A DNA stretch of 64,000 nt from the IMG/VR virus record IMGVR_UViG_3300044568_004364, one strand, 5' to 3'. Positions 6,300-57,800 of this stretch are shown one piece after another. Below the pieces are notes generated by a model. The model searched no databases and was not told the origin of the DNA. It saw only the letters and a list, made by a program, of their open reading frames with translations. The stretch comes from a virus. The position numbers and the translations under genes are program-made. The stretch's first letter is position 1; each line of letters opens with the position of its first letter.

Positions 6300-7400
6300 T
6301 TATTTGTATCCTTTGTAATATTCTGCACGCATATCATCAATAGCAGCACGGTCATATTGTGCTCCAATGATTTCGGTAAGTTTTAAGAATGCTGCCATCT
6401 TTTCGGCATTATCTCGTTCAGCATCACCACGATATAATCCTTGTGCGCCTTTTTCAAATAATATATTTGCAAATGCATTGATTAATCGTGTTTGTTCTGC
6501 TGGTGCAATATATTTCTTAATGAGTTCCGCTGCGCCAATAAACGAATCCATCATCTTCATATCCGCATCTGATGGCGTACGCTCAAAGAGTACTTTAAAG
6601 ATAACTTTAAGATCCGTAATATATGTTGATTCACTTGTTGGTATTTCACGATAGACATATAATCCATCCTGCATCATGTGTTTACCTACGCCATCTAGGA
6701 CTGGTGCTATTTTGGTGCGCAATCCATGCTGTACACTAAATGCAAGATCAGATGCTTTAATTTTCGTAGGTGTTTCTTTCTTACCTTTAAGAATGATAAT
6801 ATCACGCAGTGTTTTTGCAGATGCTGCTCTCATAATGTATTTATGAAACACACCTTTAATACCTGCTGTAATATCATTCCATGCAGATGAATGCGAGAAC
6901 ATGCTCCATGCTGTTGGTTTGCCATAAGCAAAGTCAACAAGTTCCATATCTACTTGAATGTTAATGCCAAACTCTGGGAAAGCCCAAAGCGTAATATATT
7001 GCCCCGCGCTTTTCTTAAATCCAATGAGTGAAGCATCACCAAAAGTTTTACCAGTTATGGCTTTAAGAAACTCGCCAAGGTTTTCATCTTGTATCTTATC
7101 AACCTGAGTATCTACATCGCCTACTGTATTCTTATACTTAGTAAATTCGGCTGTAGGAATTGCGCGGTTAAAAAAGTGGAATGCGCTGCCGCTAAGAAAC
7201 TCCTTGCTCTTAAAGAGTTCGCCACTCCATAATGGTAGTCCATACTTTTTCTTGTATGCTTTGTTAACTGCATCTAGTGTGCGGTCAATTTGCACCGTTA
7301 CACTATCACGGTTAATCTTTGTTAGGTCAATGCGATCTGCACCTTGGTCGCCCAACATTAAATTTCCGCCTTCAAGAATATATTGTTTAAATGATTTCAT
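6300..7400 (-). CDS. Pol-beta-superfamily nucleotidyltransferase-like protein
   Basis: SGS...GDVD...QVD motif; start MKSFKQYILE; late promoter at 7437-7444. Confidence 0.65.
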   Translation of the reverse strand: MKSFKQYILEGGNLMLGDQGADRIDLTKINRDSVTVQIDRTLDAVNKAYKKKYGLPLWSGELFKSKEFLSGSAFHFFNRAIPTAEFTKYKNTVGDVDTQVDKIQDENLGEFLKAITGKTFGDASLIGFKKSAGQYITLWAFPEFGINIQVDMELVDFAYGKPTAWSMFSHSSAWNDITAGIKGVFHKYIMRAASAKTLRDIIILKGKKETPTKIKASDLAFSVQHGLRTKIAPVLDGVGKHMMQDGLYVYREIPTSESTYITDLKVIFKVLFERTPSDADMKMMDSFIGAAELIKKYIAPAEQTRLINAFANILFEKGAQGLYRGDAERDNAEKMAAFLKLTEIIGAQYDRAAIDDMRAEYYKGYK

Positions 7401-7460
7401 GTGATTTTGTAGCCAATAACTTTACTCGTAATAATCTATTTATAATAGATGCAACTTAAA

Positions 7461-7549
7461 TGGCGGAAGCAGAGGGACTCGAACCCCCGAGGGCTTTATA
7501 GGCCCCAGCTGTTTTCAAGACAGTGTCCTCGACCAGCCGGACTACTTCC
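7461..7549 (-). tRNA. tRNA-Ser(TGA)
   Basis: Cloverleaf, long variable arm, GCCA end. Confidence 0.95.
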
Positions 7550-7558
7550 ATAAAATTT

Positions 7559-7635
7559 TGGTACACAGGGTGGGACTCGAACCCACAAAACCTTGCTTCT
7601 AAGGCAAGTACGTAAACCAATTCCGTCACCTGTGC
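7559..7635 (-). tRNA. tRNA-Leu(TAG) with short variable arm
   Basis: Loop CTTAGAA, CCA end. Confidence 0.9.
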
Positions 7636-7637
7636 AT

Positions 7638-7957
7638 TGGTGGAGACGACGGGAGTTGAACCCGTGTCCATGACGTGTGCGATTATACAATCTACAACTT
7701 ATTCTCATTTATTCAGACGAGACTCTTAGACACTTATCGTTGTGTCACGACAGCGTTATTCACAATGCTGTACAAATAGATACCGTTCGTGGTATCAACT
7801 ATCCTATGCCGTGCGAATGACAATATAGGAGTCATGTCATTCGACTCACTTAAGCAGCGAGAGCAAGTGTATTTTTGCCGTTTAGTTTTTTGACGAAGGG
7901 AGTCACCCGTGTGTTGCAATATAATCTCTCATGTCATGTCGAAACCATGACATCCCC
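7638..7957 (-). ncRNA. ssrA: tmRNA
   Basis: 5' GGGGATG...TTCGAC, 3' GGGTTCAACTCCC...CTCCACCA, tag frame GKNTLALAA* at 7850-7879. Confidence 0.93.
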
Positions 7958-7964
7958 ATTAAAA

Positions 7965-8528
7965 TTAATTATTTCGATTTTTCCAAACTTTTGCCGCGCG
8001 GAAAAGATGTGCTCCAACTTCATCATGCAGACGATCATCAAATCCCATTCCACCAAACCCGCCATAAATCATATAGTTTGATAGTGTGAAAAACAATTCT
8101 TCCAATTCATCTTCATCTATATCTTCTGCAGCTGCCATTATTTTACGAACAAGTGGATATGTTGGAGTTTTAAGAGCTTCATCAATTGTTTCTTCAACAA
8201 GATCTACTTTCTGATTTTTTTCAAAAGGAACTACGGTTGTATAGTTTCCAGCTTTTACACGTATGTTTACCAGTTTCCCAGGATGAGTTTTTGAATCCAT
8301 TGCGTCATCTGTCGCAATAACAGTATATGCTTTTGAGATGTCTACACCTTTTCCTGGGATTTTTAGATTTGCTTTAAAAGAGTCGCCCTTCTTAATGTCT
8401 TTTGCAATTTTAGTGTTGGACATTTCTTGGAGCTCAACTGTTTCATCTAATTGAGTGCATCCTGTTAAGATCTTTGTGGCCGCAGCTATAAGCGGATCGT
8501 TTTTAATGTTTGTGAAGTTTTCTTTCAT
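7965..8528 (-). CDS. Hypothetical late protein
   Basis: N-terminus ENFTNIKNDPL shared with the neighbouring gene. Confidence 0.7.
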   Translation of the reverse strand: MKENFTNIKNDPLIAAATKILTGCTQLDETVELQEMSNTKIAKDIKKGDSFKANLKIPGKGVDISKAYTVIATDDAMDSKTHPGKLVNIRVKAGNYTTVVPFEKNQKVDLVEETIDEALKTPTYPLVRKIMAAAEDIDEDELEELFFTLSNYMIYGGFGGMGFDDRLHDEVGAHLFRAAKVWKNRNN

Positions 8529-8536
8529 ATCTGTAT

Positions 8537-8827
8537 TTATTTATTTGGTCTTTTAGAAAAACGTTCTGCTGCTTTTTTAAGAAATAGCGCAGTTTCAATA
8601 TAATCATCATCTCCGTCGCGTTGGCCATTCCATTGAGTCATATATTCAAGACCATATAACAAATCTTCAAATTCCTTGGCGTCAAGCTTTGTAATTCCAG
8701 ATAGTAATTTAACTGCAGCTGGTGTTTTTGCTATACGTGAATCAGCTTCATGCAATTGACTGCCTATGATTTTTGCGGCGGCGGCTACAAGCGGATCGTT
8801 TTTAATGTTTGTAAAGTTTTCAGTCAT
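8537..8827 (-). CDS. Hypothetical late protein, partial paralog of 7965-8528
   Basis: Shared N-terminus; TATAAATA at 8841-8848. Confidence 0.7.
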   Translation of the reverse strand: MTENFTNIKNDPLVAAAAKIIGSQLHEADSRIAKTPAAVKLLSGITKLDAKEFEDLLYGLEYMTQWNGQRDGDDDYIETALFLKKAAERFSKRPNK

Positions 8828-8853
8828 ATTGTTATTTATCTATTTATAAAAAT

Positions 8854-8927
8854 TGGTAGCCCATGCTGGTATCGAACCAACTTCTCACGGGTCAAAGCCG
8901 TGTGCATTACCTTTATGCTAATGGGCA
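8854..8927 (-). tRNA. tRNA-Gln(TTG)
   Basis: Cloverleaf, CCA. Confidence 0.93.
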
Positions 8928-8929
8928 AT

Positions 8930-9004
8930 TGGAGTTGCGTGTGTGAATCGAACACACCAAGACGAGATTTGCAATCTCGCGCCTAACCATTTGGCTTACG
9001 CAAC
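8930..9004 (-). tRNA. tRNA-Cys(GCA)
   Basis: Cloverleaf, TCCA end. Confidence 0.93.
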
Positions 9005-9009
9005 AAAAA

Positions 9010-9099
9010 TGGCGGAGACAGCAGGATTTGAACCTGCGCAACCGATCAAGGTTGACTACTGTTTAGCAAACAGCTACATTACCACTCTGTCATATCTCC
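9010..9099 (-). tRNA. tRNA-Ser(GCT)
   Basis: Cloverleaf, long variable arm. Confidence 0.93.
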
Positions 9100-9102
9100 G
9101 TA

Positions 9103-9176
9103 TGGTAAGGGATGAAGGTAACGCTCCCTCGTATATTGCGTGTAAAGCAATCGTTCTACTTTTGAACTAATCCCCC
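9103..9176 (-). tRNA. tRNA-Val(TAC)
   Basis: Cloverleaf with non-canonical T loop AGCGTTA. Confidence 0.85.
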
Positions 9177-9276
9177 ATTATAAAAATTTGAAGGCCCGTT
9201 AACATCAACACTTTGGAGATATTGACATGCGAGTTCAACCGACGGGCCAAGCGGTTTAGACACCCTCTCGCAAAAA

Positions 9277-9288
9277 TGGTGCACTCTC
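9277..9288 (-). pseudogene. 3' fragment of disrupted tRNA-Arg(ACG)
   Basis: GAGAGTGCACCA pairs with the GCACTCT acceptor at 10279-10285. Confidence 0.8.
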
Positions 9289-9344
9289 AATTCATCAGTT
9301 TATTATATATTATGTACATTTATTTTAAATTATATAATACAAAA

Positions 9345-9419
9345 TGGTGGCCTGTTGAGGAATCGAACCTCAATTTGGAGTTTCGTAAACTCTCGTCTTA
9401 TCCATTGGACCAACAGGCC
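9345..9419 (-). tRNA. tRNA-Arg(ACG), intact copy inside the HNH insertion
   Basis: GGCCTGT/ACAGGCC+ACCA, loop TTACGAA. Confidence 0.9.
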
Positions 9420-9424
9420 TTTTT

Positions 9425-10198
9425 TTATTTATGTCTTCCAAATTTCCATCCATCAGGAGGTAATTCATTTTTTTCAATACGTGCAGATTTTGTTCCATTG
9501 TTAATCCAAACAGTATCAACACTTGAAAATTTCATATTACCAGAATCAATTTGTTTACGCATTCGAATTTTAGCCGAATCAGAAAGTTTTTTTCTAGTTT
9601 TTTTATCTAGTGTTTTACCTTTTCTATTTTTTATTTTTAATAAATGAAGACATTCAGATGAGCACGTTTTATATGTCTTAGAACATTTAAGCTTTAAAAA
9701 AGTACAATTACATATAACACATGTAAAAATTATTTCTATATTTTTCCACTTATTTCTTCCTAAAATCCATCCTTCTGGTATTTTGTCTTCTTTTAATATT
9801 TTTTTATTTTCTTGTAATTCAATATTGCACATCCAACGAGTTCCATATTGTGAATTGCACTCACCACTTTGAGAAATTTTCATACGTTTTGATGCCAATT
9901 TAGAGTGATGTTTTCGAATTTCTTCATACAGACGAGAATTCTTAATATAGGATATACTGCGCTCTTCACATCGCATCGCCATCATATGGCATGCATGAAT
10001 TGTTTGACTATTCTTATGAATCTTATAAAGAAGGATGTGGGCGATCCAATGTTCTCTTCCAGTTAAAACTACTAGATTAGAAGTATCATCAGATCCGCCC
10101 ATTGATTTCATCAAGATATGGTGCTTTTCAGTATATCCAGTTGCCGGATTATTTTGTCGATATGAAATTAGATTATCGTAAATACGTTGGTAGTTCAT
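9425..10198 (-). CDS. HNH homing endonuclease
   Basis: MNYQRIYDNLI...EKHHI...GGSD..NLV.LT.REH..AH; WINNG-type C-terminal repeats; late promoter at 10204-10211. Confidence 0.9.
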   Translation of the reverse strand: MNYQRIYDNLISYRQNNPATGYTEKHHILMKSMGGSDDTSNLVVLTGREHWIAHILLYKIHKNSQTIHACHMMAMRCEERSISYIKNSRLYEEIRKHHSKLASKRMKISQSGECNSQYGTRWMCNIELQENKKILKEDKIPEGWILGRNKWKNIEIIFTCVICNCTFLKLKCSKTYKTCSSECLHLLKIKNRKGKTLDKKTRKKLSDSAKIRMRKQIDSGNMKFSSVDTVWINNGTKSARIEKNELPPDGWKFGRHK

Positions 10199-53198: not shown

Positions 53199-53396
53199 AA
53201 TGATATTGTATCAGAGTTCGTTTAGCCGCGGTACTTCAAACGGATGAAGACATCTTTGTTGTCTTCCATGATATCAGCGAGCAGCTTCATGCAGTAGTCA
53301 ACCCAAGCCTCTTGAGTGATCTCGCCTCTTTGAACGGCGGCGAACATTTCGTAGTATTCTTTATTATCGGTCATGATGTGATTTGGTTACAAGATT

Positions 53397-53456
53397 ATTC
53401 TACCACAAAAATGCACACTTGTAAATAAAAAAATGCGAAAAAATGCATTTTTTTCA
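53397..53456 (-). promoter_or_regulatory. Early promoter
   Basis: TTTACA-N17-TAGAAT plus conserved upstream block. Confidence 0.8.
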
Positions 53457-53482
53457 CAAAAATACTCCTTGGGGAGACTTTT

Positions 53483-53710
53483 TTAGTCCTTGATGCGCCG
53501 TGGGCCACGCAGTGGACGAGGCGGTAGCTGTTCTTCAATGTAGCGACATGCCGCAGAGCTTAAGACTTCATCTCCGCAAGAGTCACACTTATGAACAGGC
53601 ACATTCTCCACAACATAGTTTTGTCCTTCGACCGTTTTGTCGAACTTCTGATATTCGACACGCAGAGTGCCGTCGCAATCAAAGCAAGGGATGTCTTGTA
53701 AATGTTTCAT
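53483..53710 (-). CDS. YgiT-type zinc-finger protein
   Basis: CxxC...VENVP..KCxxCG. Confidence 0.75.
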   Translation of the reverse strand: MKHLQDIPCFDCDGTLRVEYQKFDKTVEGQNYVVENVPVHKCDSCGDEVLSSAACRYIEEQLPPRPLRGPRRIKD

Positions 53711-53842
53711 AATTTTCGTCGTCTTCAAGTCTAACAGATGATTGGATCAAGCTTTCGTGTAGTATCTCGTTGCCTTCATCATCATATTCGTATCTTTCCC
53801 AATATCCACATTCGTCATCACCAATTTGATTTTCCATGGTAG

Positions 53843-54187
53843 TTACTGAGGTTTGGGCGTGGTCGGAGTGGCGCTCTCGCCGCGTGCCTCACCTTGTGCG
53901 TTCGGCTCAGAATAAAGGTCATCCAGTTCGCCGTGATCGGGGCAGTAGTAATACGGCTTACCGTCCCGCCAGTTGATCGAGGACTCCACACAGCACACGG
54001 GGCAGAGATTGCGCGGGTATGCCGTGCCGATCATGTCTTCGCAGCGACAATGCCACTCGTCCAGTTCGTGGTATTTTGCCCATGCTTCCATCACTGGTTG
54101 AGCCACCGCAAGAAGCCGAACAAGTCGCGGCAGATCAACCGCCTTGTTGCTGGTGTTTTGGGTATCGTTTGGCAATTCAGAGTTCAT
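53843..54187 (-). CDS. Cassette-borne Cys-rich hypothetical protein
   Basis: Both termini translated from attC arms. Confidence 0.65.
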   Translation of the reverse strand: MNSELPNDTQNTSNKAVDLPRLVRLLAVAQPVMEAWAKYHELDEWHCRCEDMIGTAYPRNLCPVCCVESSINWRDGKPYYYCPDHGELDDLYSEPNAQGEARGESATPTTPKPQ

Positions 54188-54240
54188 TGGTGTTTTGGTC
54201 GTTTGTTTGGTTGTAGATCGGCGGTGTCTGCGCTGTGGCG

Positions 54241-54438
54241 TTAGCCAAGAAATTCCTCGGGGCGGATGATGTTTTCACCAGGGTCATCGCTTCCGCAGTG
54301 GCAGCAGACATACCCGTTTCGGATTACTCGCCCGCAATGGTCGCATTCGACCAGTTCGGGGCATTCCCCGATTACGGTTTCCATGAGTTGTGCAAGCCAT
54401 TGGCGGCTACCTGTTTTTAGTTTGCGGAGTTTCTTCAT
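54241..54438 (-). CDS. Cassette-borne zinc-finger microprotein
   Basis: CDHCG...CCHCG; stop codon lies in the R' core. Confidence 0.65.
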   Translation of the reverse strand: MKKLRKLKTGSRQWLAQLMETVIGECPELVECDHCGRVIRNGYVCCHCGSDDPGENIIRPEEFLG

Positions 54439-54604
54439 AATTCGTAAGAGGCTAACAAGTGAATGCTGGCAACGGCGGGAAGTTGCCTGTTTGGTTTATT
54501 CGGAGTCCAGCGCCCGCCGCGCCAGATCTTTGTCGTTCGGCAGAGAACTCGCAGCCTTGCTATTTTCTCTTCTCTGTTTTTGTCTGTCATTTCTTCGAGA
54601 CCAG

Positions 54605-54802
54605 TCATGAGTTTATTTCAGTTGTTCTATGGTCTCCGCAATAGCACCAATGATACCTCATGGGGGTTCTTTTCCCGATAATGATTGTGCATCCGAGATT
54701 CCATTTGTGGACGTGTCCTTTTTGAATGCTTTTCTTGTTAGACCTTCCGTTTCTTCGCTGACGACGTATCTTTGTGATTGTTTTCTTGAGGTGTTGGTTC
54801 AT
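54605..54802 (-). CDS. Cassette-borne basic His/Cys microprotein
   Basis: HVHKW...CYCG. Confidence 0.55.
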   Translation of the reverse strand: MNQHLKKTITKIRRQRRNGRSNKKSIQKGHVHKWNLGCTIIIGKRTPMRYHWCYCGDHRTTEINS

Positions 54803-54870
54803 TTTATTGTTTGTTGTTCCGAACATTCCGCATCAAGCAACGCTGGGCGTGCCTGTGCTTGGCTGTTGTG

Positions 54871-55230
54871 CTAATAAAGGTTCTCGCTGAACAGCCGCTC
54901 GCCATCGCCCCCGCAGCGTCGACGGACTTGGTTCTGATCGACGGCGACGATCCACGCTTCTTCACGGGTCATCCAGTCCCCGAACTGATCCACGAATCCT
55001 TGATCCCATGCTTTGAAGTCGTGACCCATAGCATTGGCTTGCACCCTCATGAGCTTGTCCCAGTGCCGAGCACCGCAGATGATTAGCAGCTTGTTCACAC
55101 GGTGCCGATTAGCAGCGCATACCACGCGGCGAGGGGTCTTTGTGTAGTCGGGCTTCCACTCGGGTTCGGAAGAAGCACCACAAGACGGTGAGCCCAACGA
55201 ATCGGGCGGTGGAGTTGGTTTTGTATTCAT
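54871..55230 (-). CDS. Cassette-borne conserved phage protein
   Basis: VVCAAN..GARH...QGFVDQFG..MTREEA...LFSENLY. Confidence 0.75.
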   Translation of the reverse strand: MNTKPTPPPDSLGSPSCGASSEPEWKPDYTKTPRRVVCAANRHRVNKLLIICGARHWDKLMRVQANAMGHDFKAWDQGFVDQFGDWMTREEAWIVAVDQNQVRRRCGGDGERLFSENLY

Positions 55231-55895
55231 GATCTTTTCTCGCCCGATTCGTGGGCTACCTCGACGTTAGCTCCAATAATCGGCCATCCCATATCAGCCA
55301 CAAGACTCTCGGCCTCCTCCTTAGTTGGTAGCGCATCCATCCAGAATCCGTCCTCCAACGTAATCGCCCACTGGACATCTCCCGTCTCGTCGGTTTCGTA
55401 TATTTCCACGGGTTCCCCTGCTCGTCGAATCGCCTCCTTGTATCCCGTGGGACATTCCTTGAGGAACCGAATCGCCCAAGAAGAGCTAACAAGGTGGTCG
55501 AGGACAACGGGCGGGGCGGTGTGTGTCGAAGTTTCCATGTGCTTAGAGAGTTTATGAGGTATCGGAGTGGCGCTTTCCGCCCGTGCCTCACCTTGATCGT
55601 TCGCCAAAGAAACAAGAACGTCCCCGTGGCAGGCTTGCGGAGCGCACCAGCACCCCAACACTTTTCCGCGCAGTTCATGCAGCGCAGCCATGAGATGCGG
55701 TTGAGTTACTACCCATTCACGGTATTTTCGGATCACGGTTTCCCGGTCGCCGTCCTTCCCAATCTCAAACGGGTTTCCCCATTTCGACGGCCTGCCGATA
55801 CACACGTCATGCTTCGACCGTTTGCAGTGAACCACAAATGGCGAACAAGGCGGTGGAGGACAACAGCCTCCCGTTGGGTCTTTTGGTGTATTCAT
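55227..55895 (-). CDS. DUF4326-like protein fused in frame through an attC to the next cassette ORF (second start at 55538)
   Basis: IGRPSKWGNPF...LRGKVLGCWCAPQACHGDVL. Confidence 0.8.
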   Translation of the reverse strand: MNTPKDPTGGCCPPPPCSPFVVHCKRSKHDVCIGRPSKWGNPFEIGKDGDRETVIRKYREWVVTQPHLMAALHELRGKVLGCWCAPQACHGDVLVSLANDQGEARAESATPIPHKLSKHMETSTHTAPPVVLDHLVSSSWAIRFLKECPTGYKEAIRRAGEPVEIYETDETGDVQWAITLEDGFWMDALPTKEEAESLVADMGWPIIGANVEVAHESGEKRS

Positions 55896-56170
55896 GATTT
55901 TTTGTCGGGACTCTGTAAGTCACCTTGGGCGTTGTGCTGAATAAATTCGTGCGGGAACTCCTCGCTGAATCCGTAGTGTTCCCTGAACTCTTCCCCCGTC
56001 ATCGGATCGTTTCTTGCAGCCATCAATCCGTCTGTGGTATCAACCGTTCTCAGGACATATCTGCGTTCCATCCTGTTGCGGTCGATAGTGACCACAAAAG
56101 GCCACCCGTCAAAATCAACGGCACAACAAGCCGCATCACGCAACCCGCTGGAAGTCTGTTCTTTATTCAT
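55892..56170 (-). CDS. Cassette-borne hypothetical protein
   Basis: Start and stop inside attC loops. Confidence 0.6.
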   Translation of the reverse strand: MNKEQTSSGLRDAACCAVDFDGWPFVVTIDRNRMERRYVLRTVDTTDGLMAARNDPMTGEEFREHYGFSEEFPHEFIQHNAQGDLQSPDKKS

Positions 56171-56474
56171 GGTTTTGAGTGGGCGGGTGCGTGTGCTTTG
56201 CGTTCGGCAGCGATGCCATCACATCGACGTTCGGTGAAGAAATTACAACGAGCACGCCACACAGTCCCGCCATCCATCCAACGGACAGTCCGAGGGCAGC
56301 AGCGCACCATGCAACTAAGTCAGCATGACCGCCTAGCCCGTATGTGAATACAGTGATTCCACTGAGCAAGGGCGTGCAGATTAGCGAAGCCGCTAGGTTA
56401 TTCCAAACACACCGAACAAGTCGCTCCTGAGCAACCGCGCCCGCCGTGTTATTTGAGTCTGATTCTGTTTTCAT
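56163..56474 (-). CDS. Cassette-borne two-TM membrane protein
   Basis: Two hydrophobic segments. Confidence 0.6.
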   Translation of the reverse strand: MKTESDSNNTAGAVAQERLVRCVWNNLAASLICTPLLSGITVFTYGLGGHADLVAWCAAALGLSVGWMAGLCGVLVVISSPNVDVMASLPNAKHTHPPTQNHE

Positions 56475-56510
56475 ATTGTTGTAAATTGAACATGTCGATA
56501 CAGAACACGG

Positions 56511-56777
56511 CTATTGCCGCTCCTGATCTTGCCTGTTCGGCAGACAATTATTACATTTGGGCTTTCCACTAAAAACACGCCACCCAGCAGACCACGCCTG
56601 TTCCACGCATTCAGCCTTGGTCTTACAGTAAAACCCCTCACCACCGCACCCGCTTTGGCAGAAGATTCGCCACTCACGCATTGTTCCTCCATTGTAATCT
56701 TTGAAGGTTAAGTGCGGAATCAAAGAAGCCGAACAATTCGTGAGAGGCAACGCCTCGGAGTCTGTTGGTGTATTCAT
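56511..56777 (-). CDS. Cassette-borne zinc-finger protein
   Basis: C.SGC...GW...CNNC. Confidence 0.6.
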   Translation of the reverse strand: MNTPTDSEALPLTNCSASLIPHLTFKDYNGGTMREWRIFCQSGCGGEGFYCKTKAECVEQAWSAGWRVFSGKPKCNNCLPNRQDQERQ

Positions 56778-56782
56778 AGTCG

Positions 56783-57088
56783 TTATTGGCGTGCCTCCAC
56801 AGAGGCGTTCGCTGAATCGTAATTGCGGAACTCTGGAGTGCCGCGCCAGTTCCATTCGCGGTAGGTTTCATCAGCACCCACGGGGCAGTTGAGCCACATG
56901 CAGGAGTAGCAAGGTTCCTCGACGTGGACATGCGCCCAAAGACCTCCGTAGAGGCGACGATACCACTCATGGTTCCCAAGAAAACATGCAAACCAGCCCC
57001 AGCGAACAAGGCGGCGCATCCATTCGGTCCAAATGGCTTGGCGAGATTTGACGCTCTTTAGTGTTTCAACTCGTTCTTCGCTGATCAT
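56783..57088 (-). CDS. Cassette-borne Trp-rich hypothetical protein
   Basis: RRLVR and NASVEAR segments derive from attC arms. Confidence 0.6.
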   Translation of the reverse strand: MISEERVETLKSVKSRQAIWTEWMRRLVRWGWFACFLGNHEWYRRLYGGLWAHVHVEEPCYSCMWLNCPVGADETYREWNWRGTPEFRNYDSANASVEARQ

Positions 57089-57283: not shown

Positions 57284-57664
57284 TTAGAGCAGATTTTGTT
57301 CCATATATTCCTCACATGTGGGAATAGTGTTTCGGTATTGCTGCAGATCGGCAATAAGCATATCCAGTGATTCTCTGTTATGCATCTCAGGTGTGTTTAG
57401 GCAAAGATCTACAAATTTTAAAATTTGTTCCGAGATTTCTTCGTGTGAAGGGAGAGAGCAATACGCCACGATGAAGAAGTCTTCTTCCTTGCATTCGAGT
57501 GTATCATTTGCACCAGTCAAGCCAAAGCAGTAATTATTCCAAGGACATTTGATGTTCCAATATTCCTCTCCGCCTTTCTCGAAAAGAGTTACGACATATG
57601 CCGTGGTGCCCCAATGAACGGTTTTGCCTTCACGAACTGCTTGCTTAATTTCTGATAGATTCAT
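57284..57664 (-). CDS. Hypothetical early protein
   Basis: MNLSEIKQAV..GKTVHW; first gene behind a promoter. Confidence 0.65.
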   Translation of the reverse strand: MNLSEIKQAVREGKTVHWGTTAYVVTLFEKGGEEYWNIKCPWNNYCFGLTGANDTLECKEEDFFIVAYCSLPSHEEISEQILKFVDLCLNTPEMHNRESLDMLIADLQQYRNTIPTCEEYMEQNLL

Positions 57665-57686
57665 AATGTGGTTTGGTTACATGATT

Positions 57687-57715
57687 ATTCTACCATAAAA
57701 ACACATACTTGTAAA
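57687..57715 (-). promoter_or_regulatory. Early promoter upstream of the cassette array
   Basis: TTTACA-N17-TAGAAT. Confidence 0.78.
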
Positions 57716-57742
57716 ACAAAAAATGATGAAAATGTGAAAAAA

Positions 57743-57776
57743 GTGAAAAACCTATAGATACGTATAGGTTTTTCAC
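57743..57776. terminator. Long hairpin, probable terminator
   Basis: GTGAAAAACCTATA...TATAGGTTTTTCAC. Confidence 0.6.
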
Positions 57777-57800
57777 TCTGTAAAAACCGCCTAAAACGGC

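Follow-up and report, generated by a model that had tools for sequence, protein, structure and literature searches.

Probable integron attC sites in a large phage carry reversed gene cassettes that appear to start in the attC loops

Integron cassettes are taught as self-contained, promoterless genes in the sense orientation, a state that the integrase's selectivity for one strand is said to maintain. The locus described here raises the question of how a cassette array can be built when every gene in it runs the other way. It lies in the virus record IMGVR_UViG_3300044568_004364, of which the window analysed, a single stretch of 64 kb, is a part; the full record measures 100.8 kb and is by estimate about 51% complete. 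Within the window the guanine-plus-cytosine (GC) content climbs in a sharp step from about 39% to 51–55% in the block at 53.84–57.09 kb, where an island (53.84–57.03 kb) made up of nine complete attC sites, in the form of imperfect hairpins, and two half-sites is packed with ten open reading frames (ORFs), all on the minus strand and with almost no spacing between them (Table 1). An earlier reading of the DNA letters, hereafter the sequence-only reading, had proposed that the attC sites are read on the plus strand while all cassette ORFs lie on the minus strand and use the attC loops as junctions. Here, we report that these are probably genuine integron attC sites of an Akkermansiaceae family, which in phages carry a reversed type of cassette with the gene on the attC bottom strand.

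Read on the plus strand, the sites present a 7-nucleotide (nt) box ending in AAC, a spacer of 5 nt, a stem, a variable loop of about 3 to 85 nt, the return stem, a spacer of 5–7 nt and a GTT box. Against the consensus boxes (R'' RYYYAAC, R' GTTRRRY) GTT was kept in all nine R' and AAC in eight of nine R'' (CAC in S4), the purine/pyrimidine pattern being loose. Two or three extra-helical bases per site are found on the 5'-AAC-3' arm at stem index 3 and 10/11, which equal attC positions 16 and 23/24. The first and last bulges are separated by 6 bp, the pattern of index 3 plus 10/11 is present in 7/9 sites (S6 and S8 are irregular) and the final extra base is always an A on the plus strand, that is, the conserved T of the bottom strand. 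Compensatory changes were seen in 11 of 12 stem pairs in an alignment of 14 sites, and folding gave z = -3.6 for S4 and z = -3.5 for S8. A rule-based scanner, used in place of an energy-based hairpin scanner that was dropped as too noisy, recovered 7/9 sites of the island on the plus strand and none on the minus strand, with one weak match in the rest of the 100.8 kb record. The covariance model built from the 14-site alignment found eight sites, all on the plus strand, with nothing else in the 64 kb window and no match in 216 kb of control loci. The R' of a site is not complementary to its own R'' but to that of the next site (6/6 positions in eight of ten successive pairs, 5/6 in the other two), a chaining to be expected if cassettes circularise at G|TT.

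The R'' and R' boxes are symmetric and complementary hexamers flank a body in either reading, and the strand might on this ground have been misassigned, the sites being in truth read on the minus strand with ordinary sense cassettes between them. This we consider scarcely credible. By the published rule the extra-helical bases share the top-strand arm with 5'-AAC-3' (Nivina et al. 2016, PMC5027507), and the bulged bases lie on the plus-strand AAC arm in every scored site, while the covariance model matches the plus strand only. Applied to three controls, the same rule gave arrays that run away from intI and have sense ORFs: a Lysobacterales integron with a full intI (487 bits), where the ORFs stop at R''; the Akkermansiaceae contig L053, which carries an intI fragment; and the published cluster of attC sites lacking an integron integrase (CALIN) of phage TJE1, with a sense methylase gene that has its stop in R''. 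The intI-linked control arrays (L038 and L053) were scored by the same extra-helical-base rule as the island. Further, the unit that moves between phage arrays, described below, consists of a body with its attC on the top-strand 3' side, TT-body-own attC-G on the plus strand. The polarity proposed by the sequence-only reading agrees with the bulge rule, the covariance model and the control integrons, and the antisense position of the cassette ORFs is judged to hold by three independent tests (bulge position, control integrons and mobile-unit polarity).

A canonical cassette has a promoterless ORF that occupies the attC top strand, in the interval from the preceding R' to the cassette's own attC. 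The island departs from this form in that its ORFs use the bottom strand and extend across cassette boundaries. For five of them, namely the DUF4326, phrog_839/T4_Y16D, zinc-ribbon, 92-amino-acid (aa) and 101-aa genes, there is direct evidence of minus-strand coding, and for the others context points to the same strand. When the zinc-ribbon gene was compared with its copies in two other phage contigs the differences by codon position were 1/1/11 and 2/2/21, and synonymous outnumbered non-synonymous changes by 9:3 and 20:4. The 119-aa gene has homologues in 14 other phage contigs. The long plus-strand ORFs of the island gave no family match, and where such ORFs had tblastn matches their identity was below that of the minus frame (71–83% vs 91–93%); such matches alone are no evidence of coding, because antisense frames of real genes give them too. 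GC content by codon position did not separate the strands.

All seven starts that had been placed in unpaired attC loops (54187, 55230, 55538, 55895, 56170, 56474 and 56777) are minus-strand ATG codons at such positions, two of them (55538 and 56777) being internal Met codons of mechanically longer ORFs. The ATGA stop/start overlaps at 55227-55230 and 55892-55895 were likewise recovered, two further ones lie outside loops (54435-54438 and 54605-54608), and a stop 5 nt before the loop ATG occurs also at S0. The stereotyped terminal peptides that had been listed are all found in the translations. Three of the ten ORFs begin at other places than a loop: that at 54438 starts 12 nt outside the R'' of S2, that at 54826 overlaps the R'' of S3, and that at 57088 begins with a phage-derived leader. 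Statistics were drawn from 26 non-redundant sites of the attC family in phage arrays. The loop ATG was in frame with the downstream gene in 22 of 25 cases (22:3, p = 2e-8), and the crossover AAC of R' was read as a codon (phase 0) by 22/26 genes (phases 22/1/3, p = 1e-7), whereas the phase at R'' was uniform (8/9/8). This is the asymmetry that integron recombination predicts, because any body must fit any neighbour at R' while head and body travel together across R'', and it speaks at once for the strand assignment, for translation that really crosses the junction and for R' as the place of exchange. The phase lock at R' alone also fits the earlier idea that a new cassette order remains a coupled operon. 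That the loop ATGs are real initiation sites, and that coupling takes place, we infer from these sequence statistics.

Could the genes instead begin inside the body, at a GTG, TTG or ATG after R'', with leaders and tails that are untranslated or read through incidentally in stop-poor, GC-rich DNA? Family matches do set in past the leader (at residue 22 or 24), the start of the 65-aa gene falls outside its own attC, and the loop ATGs have no Shine-Dalgarno sequence before them. Even so, such starts are a very unlikely alternative for the set as a whole, given that the loop ATG shares the frame of the body in 22 of 25 cases and that upstream stops cluster at or beside these ATGs, five or more attC types showing ATGA overlaps. 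Most aligned bacterial sites of the same family have no ATG at the homologous place in the loop, where most phage sites carry one, and public gene calls in another temperate phage begin in the loop with overlaps of 4 nt.

By searches with cassette proteins and attC motifs, the same attC types were found in about a dozen GC-rich virus contigs, in which the relative orientation of gene and attC is always identical. These contigs are phages, as they carry a terminase, portal, helicase or Cro-like regulator. A methylase cassette of 575 nt occurs in two of them (L026 7939-8513 and L028 6790-7364); the copies are 96% identical, their neighbours differ at either end, and the similarity extends from the G|TT of different upstream sites to the G|TT of the cassette's own site. 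The last residues of the methylase are ETSGGTP in one of the two arrays and AEVSHGDGSATPTTQKS in the second. Within the island's own gene families, the zinc-ribbon gene occurs with three different tails after Pro-Asn and the 101-aa gene with at least six after Ala-Asn; homologues of the latter differ also in their heads before R''. The similarity of L020/L021 to the first cassette begins at 53898/53899, the G|TT of S0. In these three families a common body is followed by unrelated tails directly after the Asn of the crossover AAC, as the idea of C-termini borrowed from the neighbouring site would have it.

These exchanges need not involve an integrase. The hairpins may now serve only as gene junctions at the RNA level and as patches of homology for general recombination, the attC features being inherited and the polarity and phase set by translational selection. 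With the PF00589 (tyrosine recombinase) and TIGR02249 (IntI) profiles no match was found in the 100.8 kb, about 51% complete record, and intI was absent from the five related phage contigs searched; the phage encodes a UvsX-like recombinase, the ends of the island are half-sites joined at gene starts, and one attC core is found joined to different bodies on both sides. We nevertheless regard it as unlikely that no integrase acts in the phages. An R' that pairs with the next R'' and not with its own would not be preserved by selection for hairpins, the 575-nt unit common to two arrays has both its ends at G|TT, the phase lock is confined to R', the canonical crossover, with none at R'', and extra-helical bases are retained at positions 16 and 23/24. 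The tyrosine recombinases of two related phage contigs were considered as integron integrases and rejected as generic (22 bits with TIGR02249, against a cut-off of 265 bits).

Genuine attC sites of this family appear to be native to the chromosomal integrons of Akkermansiaceae (Verrucomicrobiota). Of 61 Akkermansiaceae genomes sampled, 36 were matched by covariance model R1, one of them at as many as 67 sites, and of 41 genomes of a Lysobacterales family only 1 was matched, there in a single phage-like contig; in L053 an intI fragment adjoins these attC sites. A comparison with bacterial arrays, which the sequence-only reading had called for, showed opposite orientations: a crude classifier by ORF length scored 46 sense, 1 antisense and 24 ambiguous cassettes in Akkermansiaceae arrays, and 1 sense, 11 antisense and 16 ambiguous in phage arrays (Fisher p = 5e-10). 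The single antisense bacterial cassette has an S5-like attC with a loop start. Lysobacterales as a host were rejected, as the bin's own integron has a different attC type and the family is otherwise without this one. The contig concerned (L029, contig C19 of G006, JADKCY010000019.1) carries terminase-like genes with this attC family and is binned as Lysobacterales; it is probably a phage contig put in the wrong bin, and the host idea was for this reason shifted to Akkermansiaceae.

The following scheme would join these observations. One cassette would begin with the TT of the R' before it, take in the body and end with the G of the R' that is its own. The gene upstream, whichever it is, would receive its tail and stop codon from the cassette's L' arm and one half of the loop, while the cassette's loop ATG would open a short leader through L'' and R'' into the body, which is stopless and closes with the crossover AAC as an Asn codon. 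The adjoining attC would then add the last residues and a stop, usually beside or overlapping the next loop ATG, where ribosomes would re-initiate. With nearly all bodies meeting the crossover in one phase, any order of cassettes would give a continuous, tightly packed operon. The host integron integrase would perform the exchange, and transcription would come from the early-type promoter-like site on the minus strand, which lies at 57687–57715 as had been noted, the whole block now riding in a promoter-repeat-bracketed module of a large UvsX-encoding phage. A wider proposal, to which we give about even credence, is that phages of Akkermansiaceae-type hosts keep an integron cassette class of their own, reversed, stopless and phase-locked at AA|C, with which the host integrase could reshuffle early genes (methylases and small takeover genes) while the operon stays intact, and that cassettes pass between temperate phages, the large lytic phage and bacterial chromosomal integrons.

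Several points weigh against this interpretation. One attC core is found with different bodies on the R'' side, which the canonical reaction does not explain unless the same attC type has been used again and again in the making of cassettes. Common descent links the sites, and the p-values overstate their independence. Besides lacking a Shine-Dalgarno sequence, the loop ATGs open site-encoded leaders that fall outside the conserved domains, and some genes may also, or only, start just after R'', for example at a GTG that precedes the DUF4326 domain. Both strands are open in many short cassettes, which the classifier by ORF length leaves ambiguous; the R'' of S4 and the stems of S6 and S8 are weakened; the host assignment depends on metagenome bins; and with the record only about 51% complete a phage integrase may lie elsewhere in the genome.

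How the island came to its present place is a separate matter. The large ORFs of the 100.8 kb record are almost all on the minus strand, and along with the UvsX-like recombinase it encodes a DnaB-like helicase, a ribonucleotide reductase and a T4-type RNA ligase. No Gp23-type (T4-type) capsid gene was matched in the record by a search whose positive control was equally silent, and because of this the label T4-like is partly supported, resting on UvsX, RNA ligase, ribonucleotide reductase and promoter elements. Copies of a stem-loop with an early promoter (53370–53510 and 57660–57800), about 85% identical, bracket a module of 4.3 kb that contains the attC island and four AT-rich small ORFs. In the relative L040 the module is missing and both flanks are joined directly, the flanking genes being about 75% identical. 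At its left end the island has the loop and right arm only, the ATG of which opens an AT-rich phage ORF, and at its right end the R'' and left arm only, fused to a phage-type gene start that is repeated 165 nt upstream; a 21-nt repeat (D4) at the S10 junction recurs at the start of the following phage gene. A lambda-like contig holds a copy of the zinc-ribbon cassette with 94% DNA identity, which gives the transfer a recent look. Most likely, the 3.2 kb block of 51–55% GC was acquired whole from GC-rich temperate phages by recombination that was not site-specific. Nothing in the data indicates assembly of the array in place in the large phage; it looks like acquisition as a block. A blastn search of 50,697 phage records with the island and 14 kb of flanking DNA gave no match.

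An abrupt GC step from 39% to 51–55% in a metagenomic record could also betray an assembly chimera, the GC-rich block not being phage DNA at all. The chance of this is minimal, because seven independent assemblies from different samples are 99.95–100% identical across the parts of the island that they cover, L078 and L079 spanning it completely and five of the seven including one or both phage junctions; both junctions, moreover, are in frame. The longest contigs with the island reach 171 kb. Gain or loss of cassettes among these assemblies was considered and rejected, as the DNA is identical and only the gene calling differed.

Known systems resemble the island in part. A complete integron would have intI, attI and a promoter beside the array; with no intI matched by the two profiles in the about 51% complete record, the array does not count as one. 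By definition a CALIN has two or more attC sites within 4 kb on the same strand and no integrase nearby (PMC4889954), and the nine plus-strand sites inside 2.7 kb, with no integrase nearby, form one. Phage CALINs have been published and described as typical arrays (Qi et al. 2023, PMC9892861). As in that paper, we find an integrase-less row of attC sites in a lytic-type phage, and methylase cassettes are frequent there and in the related phage arrays; the TJE1 gene, however, is sense with its stop in R'', whereas the genes here are on the bottom strand, start in loops and mostly lack a stop of their own. A full-text literature search returned phage CALINs (PMC9892861) and no account of reversed cassettes with a start in the loop and without a stop of their own. 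With canonical attC sites (PMC5027507) the island shares the order of boxes, spacers of 5–6 nt, extra-helical positions 16/(20)/23-24, the last bottom-strand T and the variable loop, but the first bottom-strand extra-helical base is often C, A or T instead of the usual G, and the loops carry a conserved start codon. The shuffling of promoter-early stem-loop (PeSL) modules, known from phages of the T4 type (Arbiol et al. 2010, PMC2839356; Comeau et al. 2014, PMC4122927), offers a parallel: a stem-loop with an early promoter stands on both sides of the variable block here, and a relative lacks the module; PeSL shuffling accounts for the presence of the whole module, not for the attC architecture inside it.

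Sedentary chromosomal integrons with one uniform attC type are known as Vibrio-type superintegrons; here, those of Akkermansiaceae share with the island the attC family, its many copies and the R'/R'' chaining and have an intI fragment, but their cassettes are sense (46:1) and most of their loops have no bottom-strand ATG. Jacquier et al., in Mol Microbiol in 2009, reportedly found that attC hairpins affect the translation of downstream cassettes, in top-strand RNA and with sense cassettes. The island is similar in that translation through the attC hairpin would govern the next gene, and differs in that the RNA is that of the bottom strand, with start and stop in the loop.

In this island the entire set of cassettes runs with reversed polarity, with gene ends that come from the neighbouring recombination site and a phase that is fixed at the crossover. 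If this is true, the integron reaction would act for phages as an in-frame gene shuffler, like exon shuffling, and the diversity of phage early genes, including runs of anti-restriction methylases, would be tied to a bacterial recombination system. The attC type may then be used as a host clue for uncultured phages, and the island may offer a tractable case for how attC sites and genes become joined.

Table 1. Coordinates of attC sites, cassette genes and promoter-like elements in and around the island (positions in the 64 kb window)
Feature	Coordinates	Strand	Remarks
Second copy of promoter element	53425-53397	-	from sequence; with the 57715-57687 copy brackets the 4.3 kb module
S0, half attC	53838..53906	+	loop remnant, L' arm, R' 53900-53906; homologous to right half of S5; left end of GC-rich island; loop ATG 53837-53835 (-) starts AT-rich phage ORF
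Zinc-ribbon-like cassette gene, 114 aa	53843..54187	-	body 91-93% identical in L020/L021
attC S1, 132 nt	54115..54246	+	long loop; bulges at stem index 3, 8, 11; loop ATG 54187
Cys-rich gene, 65 aa	54241..54438	-	wholly inside own cassette; weak Pfam hints
ORF bridging S2, 57 aa	54435..54608	-	ATGA overlap at each end
attC S2, 92 nt	54450..54541	+	no loop ATG; crossed by 57-aa bridging ORF; covariance match
Very basic ORF, 73 aa	54605..54826	-	weak phrog_276 match
attC S3, 54 nt	54818..54871	+	short type; ATG overlaps R''; TAG stop at R'
phrog_839 / T4_Y16D family gene, 119 aa	54871..55230	-	phrog_839 8e-33, residues 24-118; precomputed PF26092 match
attC S4, 98 nt	55175..55272	+	degenerate R'' (CAC for AAC); ATGA junction 55227-55230 in loop
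Fusion of DUF4326 cassette and S5-cassette gene, 222 aa	55227..55895	-	DUF4326 5e-28, residues 22-95
attC S5, 122 nt	55484..55605	+	three extra-helical bases; loop ATG 55538; no stop, two cassettes fused in frame
attC S6, 98 nt	55840..55937	+	weakened stem; ATGA junction 55892-55895
Cassette gene, 92 aa	55892..56170	-	homologues 63-96% identical; tail diverges after Asn codon
attC S7, 88 nt	56121..56208	+	covariance 73.9 bits; loop ATG 56170; upstream stop 8 nt inside next ORF
Hydrophobic cassette gene, 103 aa	56163..56474	-	context only
S7b, orphan L'/R' remnant	56215..56235	+	second GTT box; R' matches S8 R''
attC S8, 131 nt	56411..56541	+	irregular stem; covariance 20.4 bits; loop ATG 56474; upstream stop 56511
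Cys-rich cassette gene, 88 aa	56511..56777	-	mechanical ORF from 56855; weak phrog_926 match
attC S9, 86 nt	56728..56813	+	covariance 65.1 bits; loop ATG 56777; upstream stop 5 nt before
Cassette gene with phage-derived N-terminus, 101 aa	56783..57088	-	seven homologues share body
S10, half attC	57001..57030	+	R'' and left arm; right island end, joined to AT-rich phage-type gene start
Early-type promoter-like site, upstream copy	57715-57687	-	from sequence; stem-loop before it

Individual sites have relatives elsewhere and local irregularities. S4 is 80–83% identical to sites of L015–L019, and S5 is 84% identical to a site in L015, with the same type present in the Akkermansiaceae array L041. 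The R' of S1 contains the TAA of the next gene. The stretch of S7b (56209-56235) looks like the scar of a lost or deleted cassette, and the 57-aa ORF looks like a spacer frame that would keep translation continuous across the ATG-less loop of S2. The cassette body at 54542-54817, which belongs to the 73-aa ORF, has a GC content far below that of its neighbours. The 222-aa ORF may have a separate start at 55538, which is used by some public gene calls. Read-through of an entire attC in frame, fusing two cassette genes, is seen both at 55227-55895 and at L021 4521-5267, in unrelated arrays.

The array of L028 (IMGVR_UViG_3300049811_000320) holds five consecutive DNA methyltransferase genes at 6737-10166, three being N6_N4-type and two Methyltransf_11/25-type, with both end junctions of the run and three junctions among its first four genes in reversed attC. 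In the bacterial array of L041 (Akkermansiaceae, JBGSRM010000193.1) the gene directly after the last attC, at 1656-2795, encodes what we take, by the look of its translation, to be an IS200-type or REP-associated tyrosine transposase. Phage gene starts in the region of the island (for example 57088, 53837 and 57253) have no Shine-Dalgarno sequence and lie behind A/T-rich leaders, and such starts may tell about the mode of initiation in the host.

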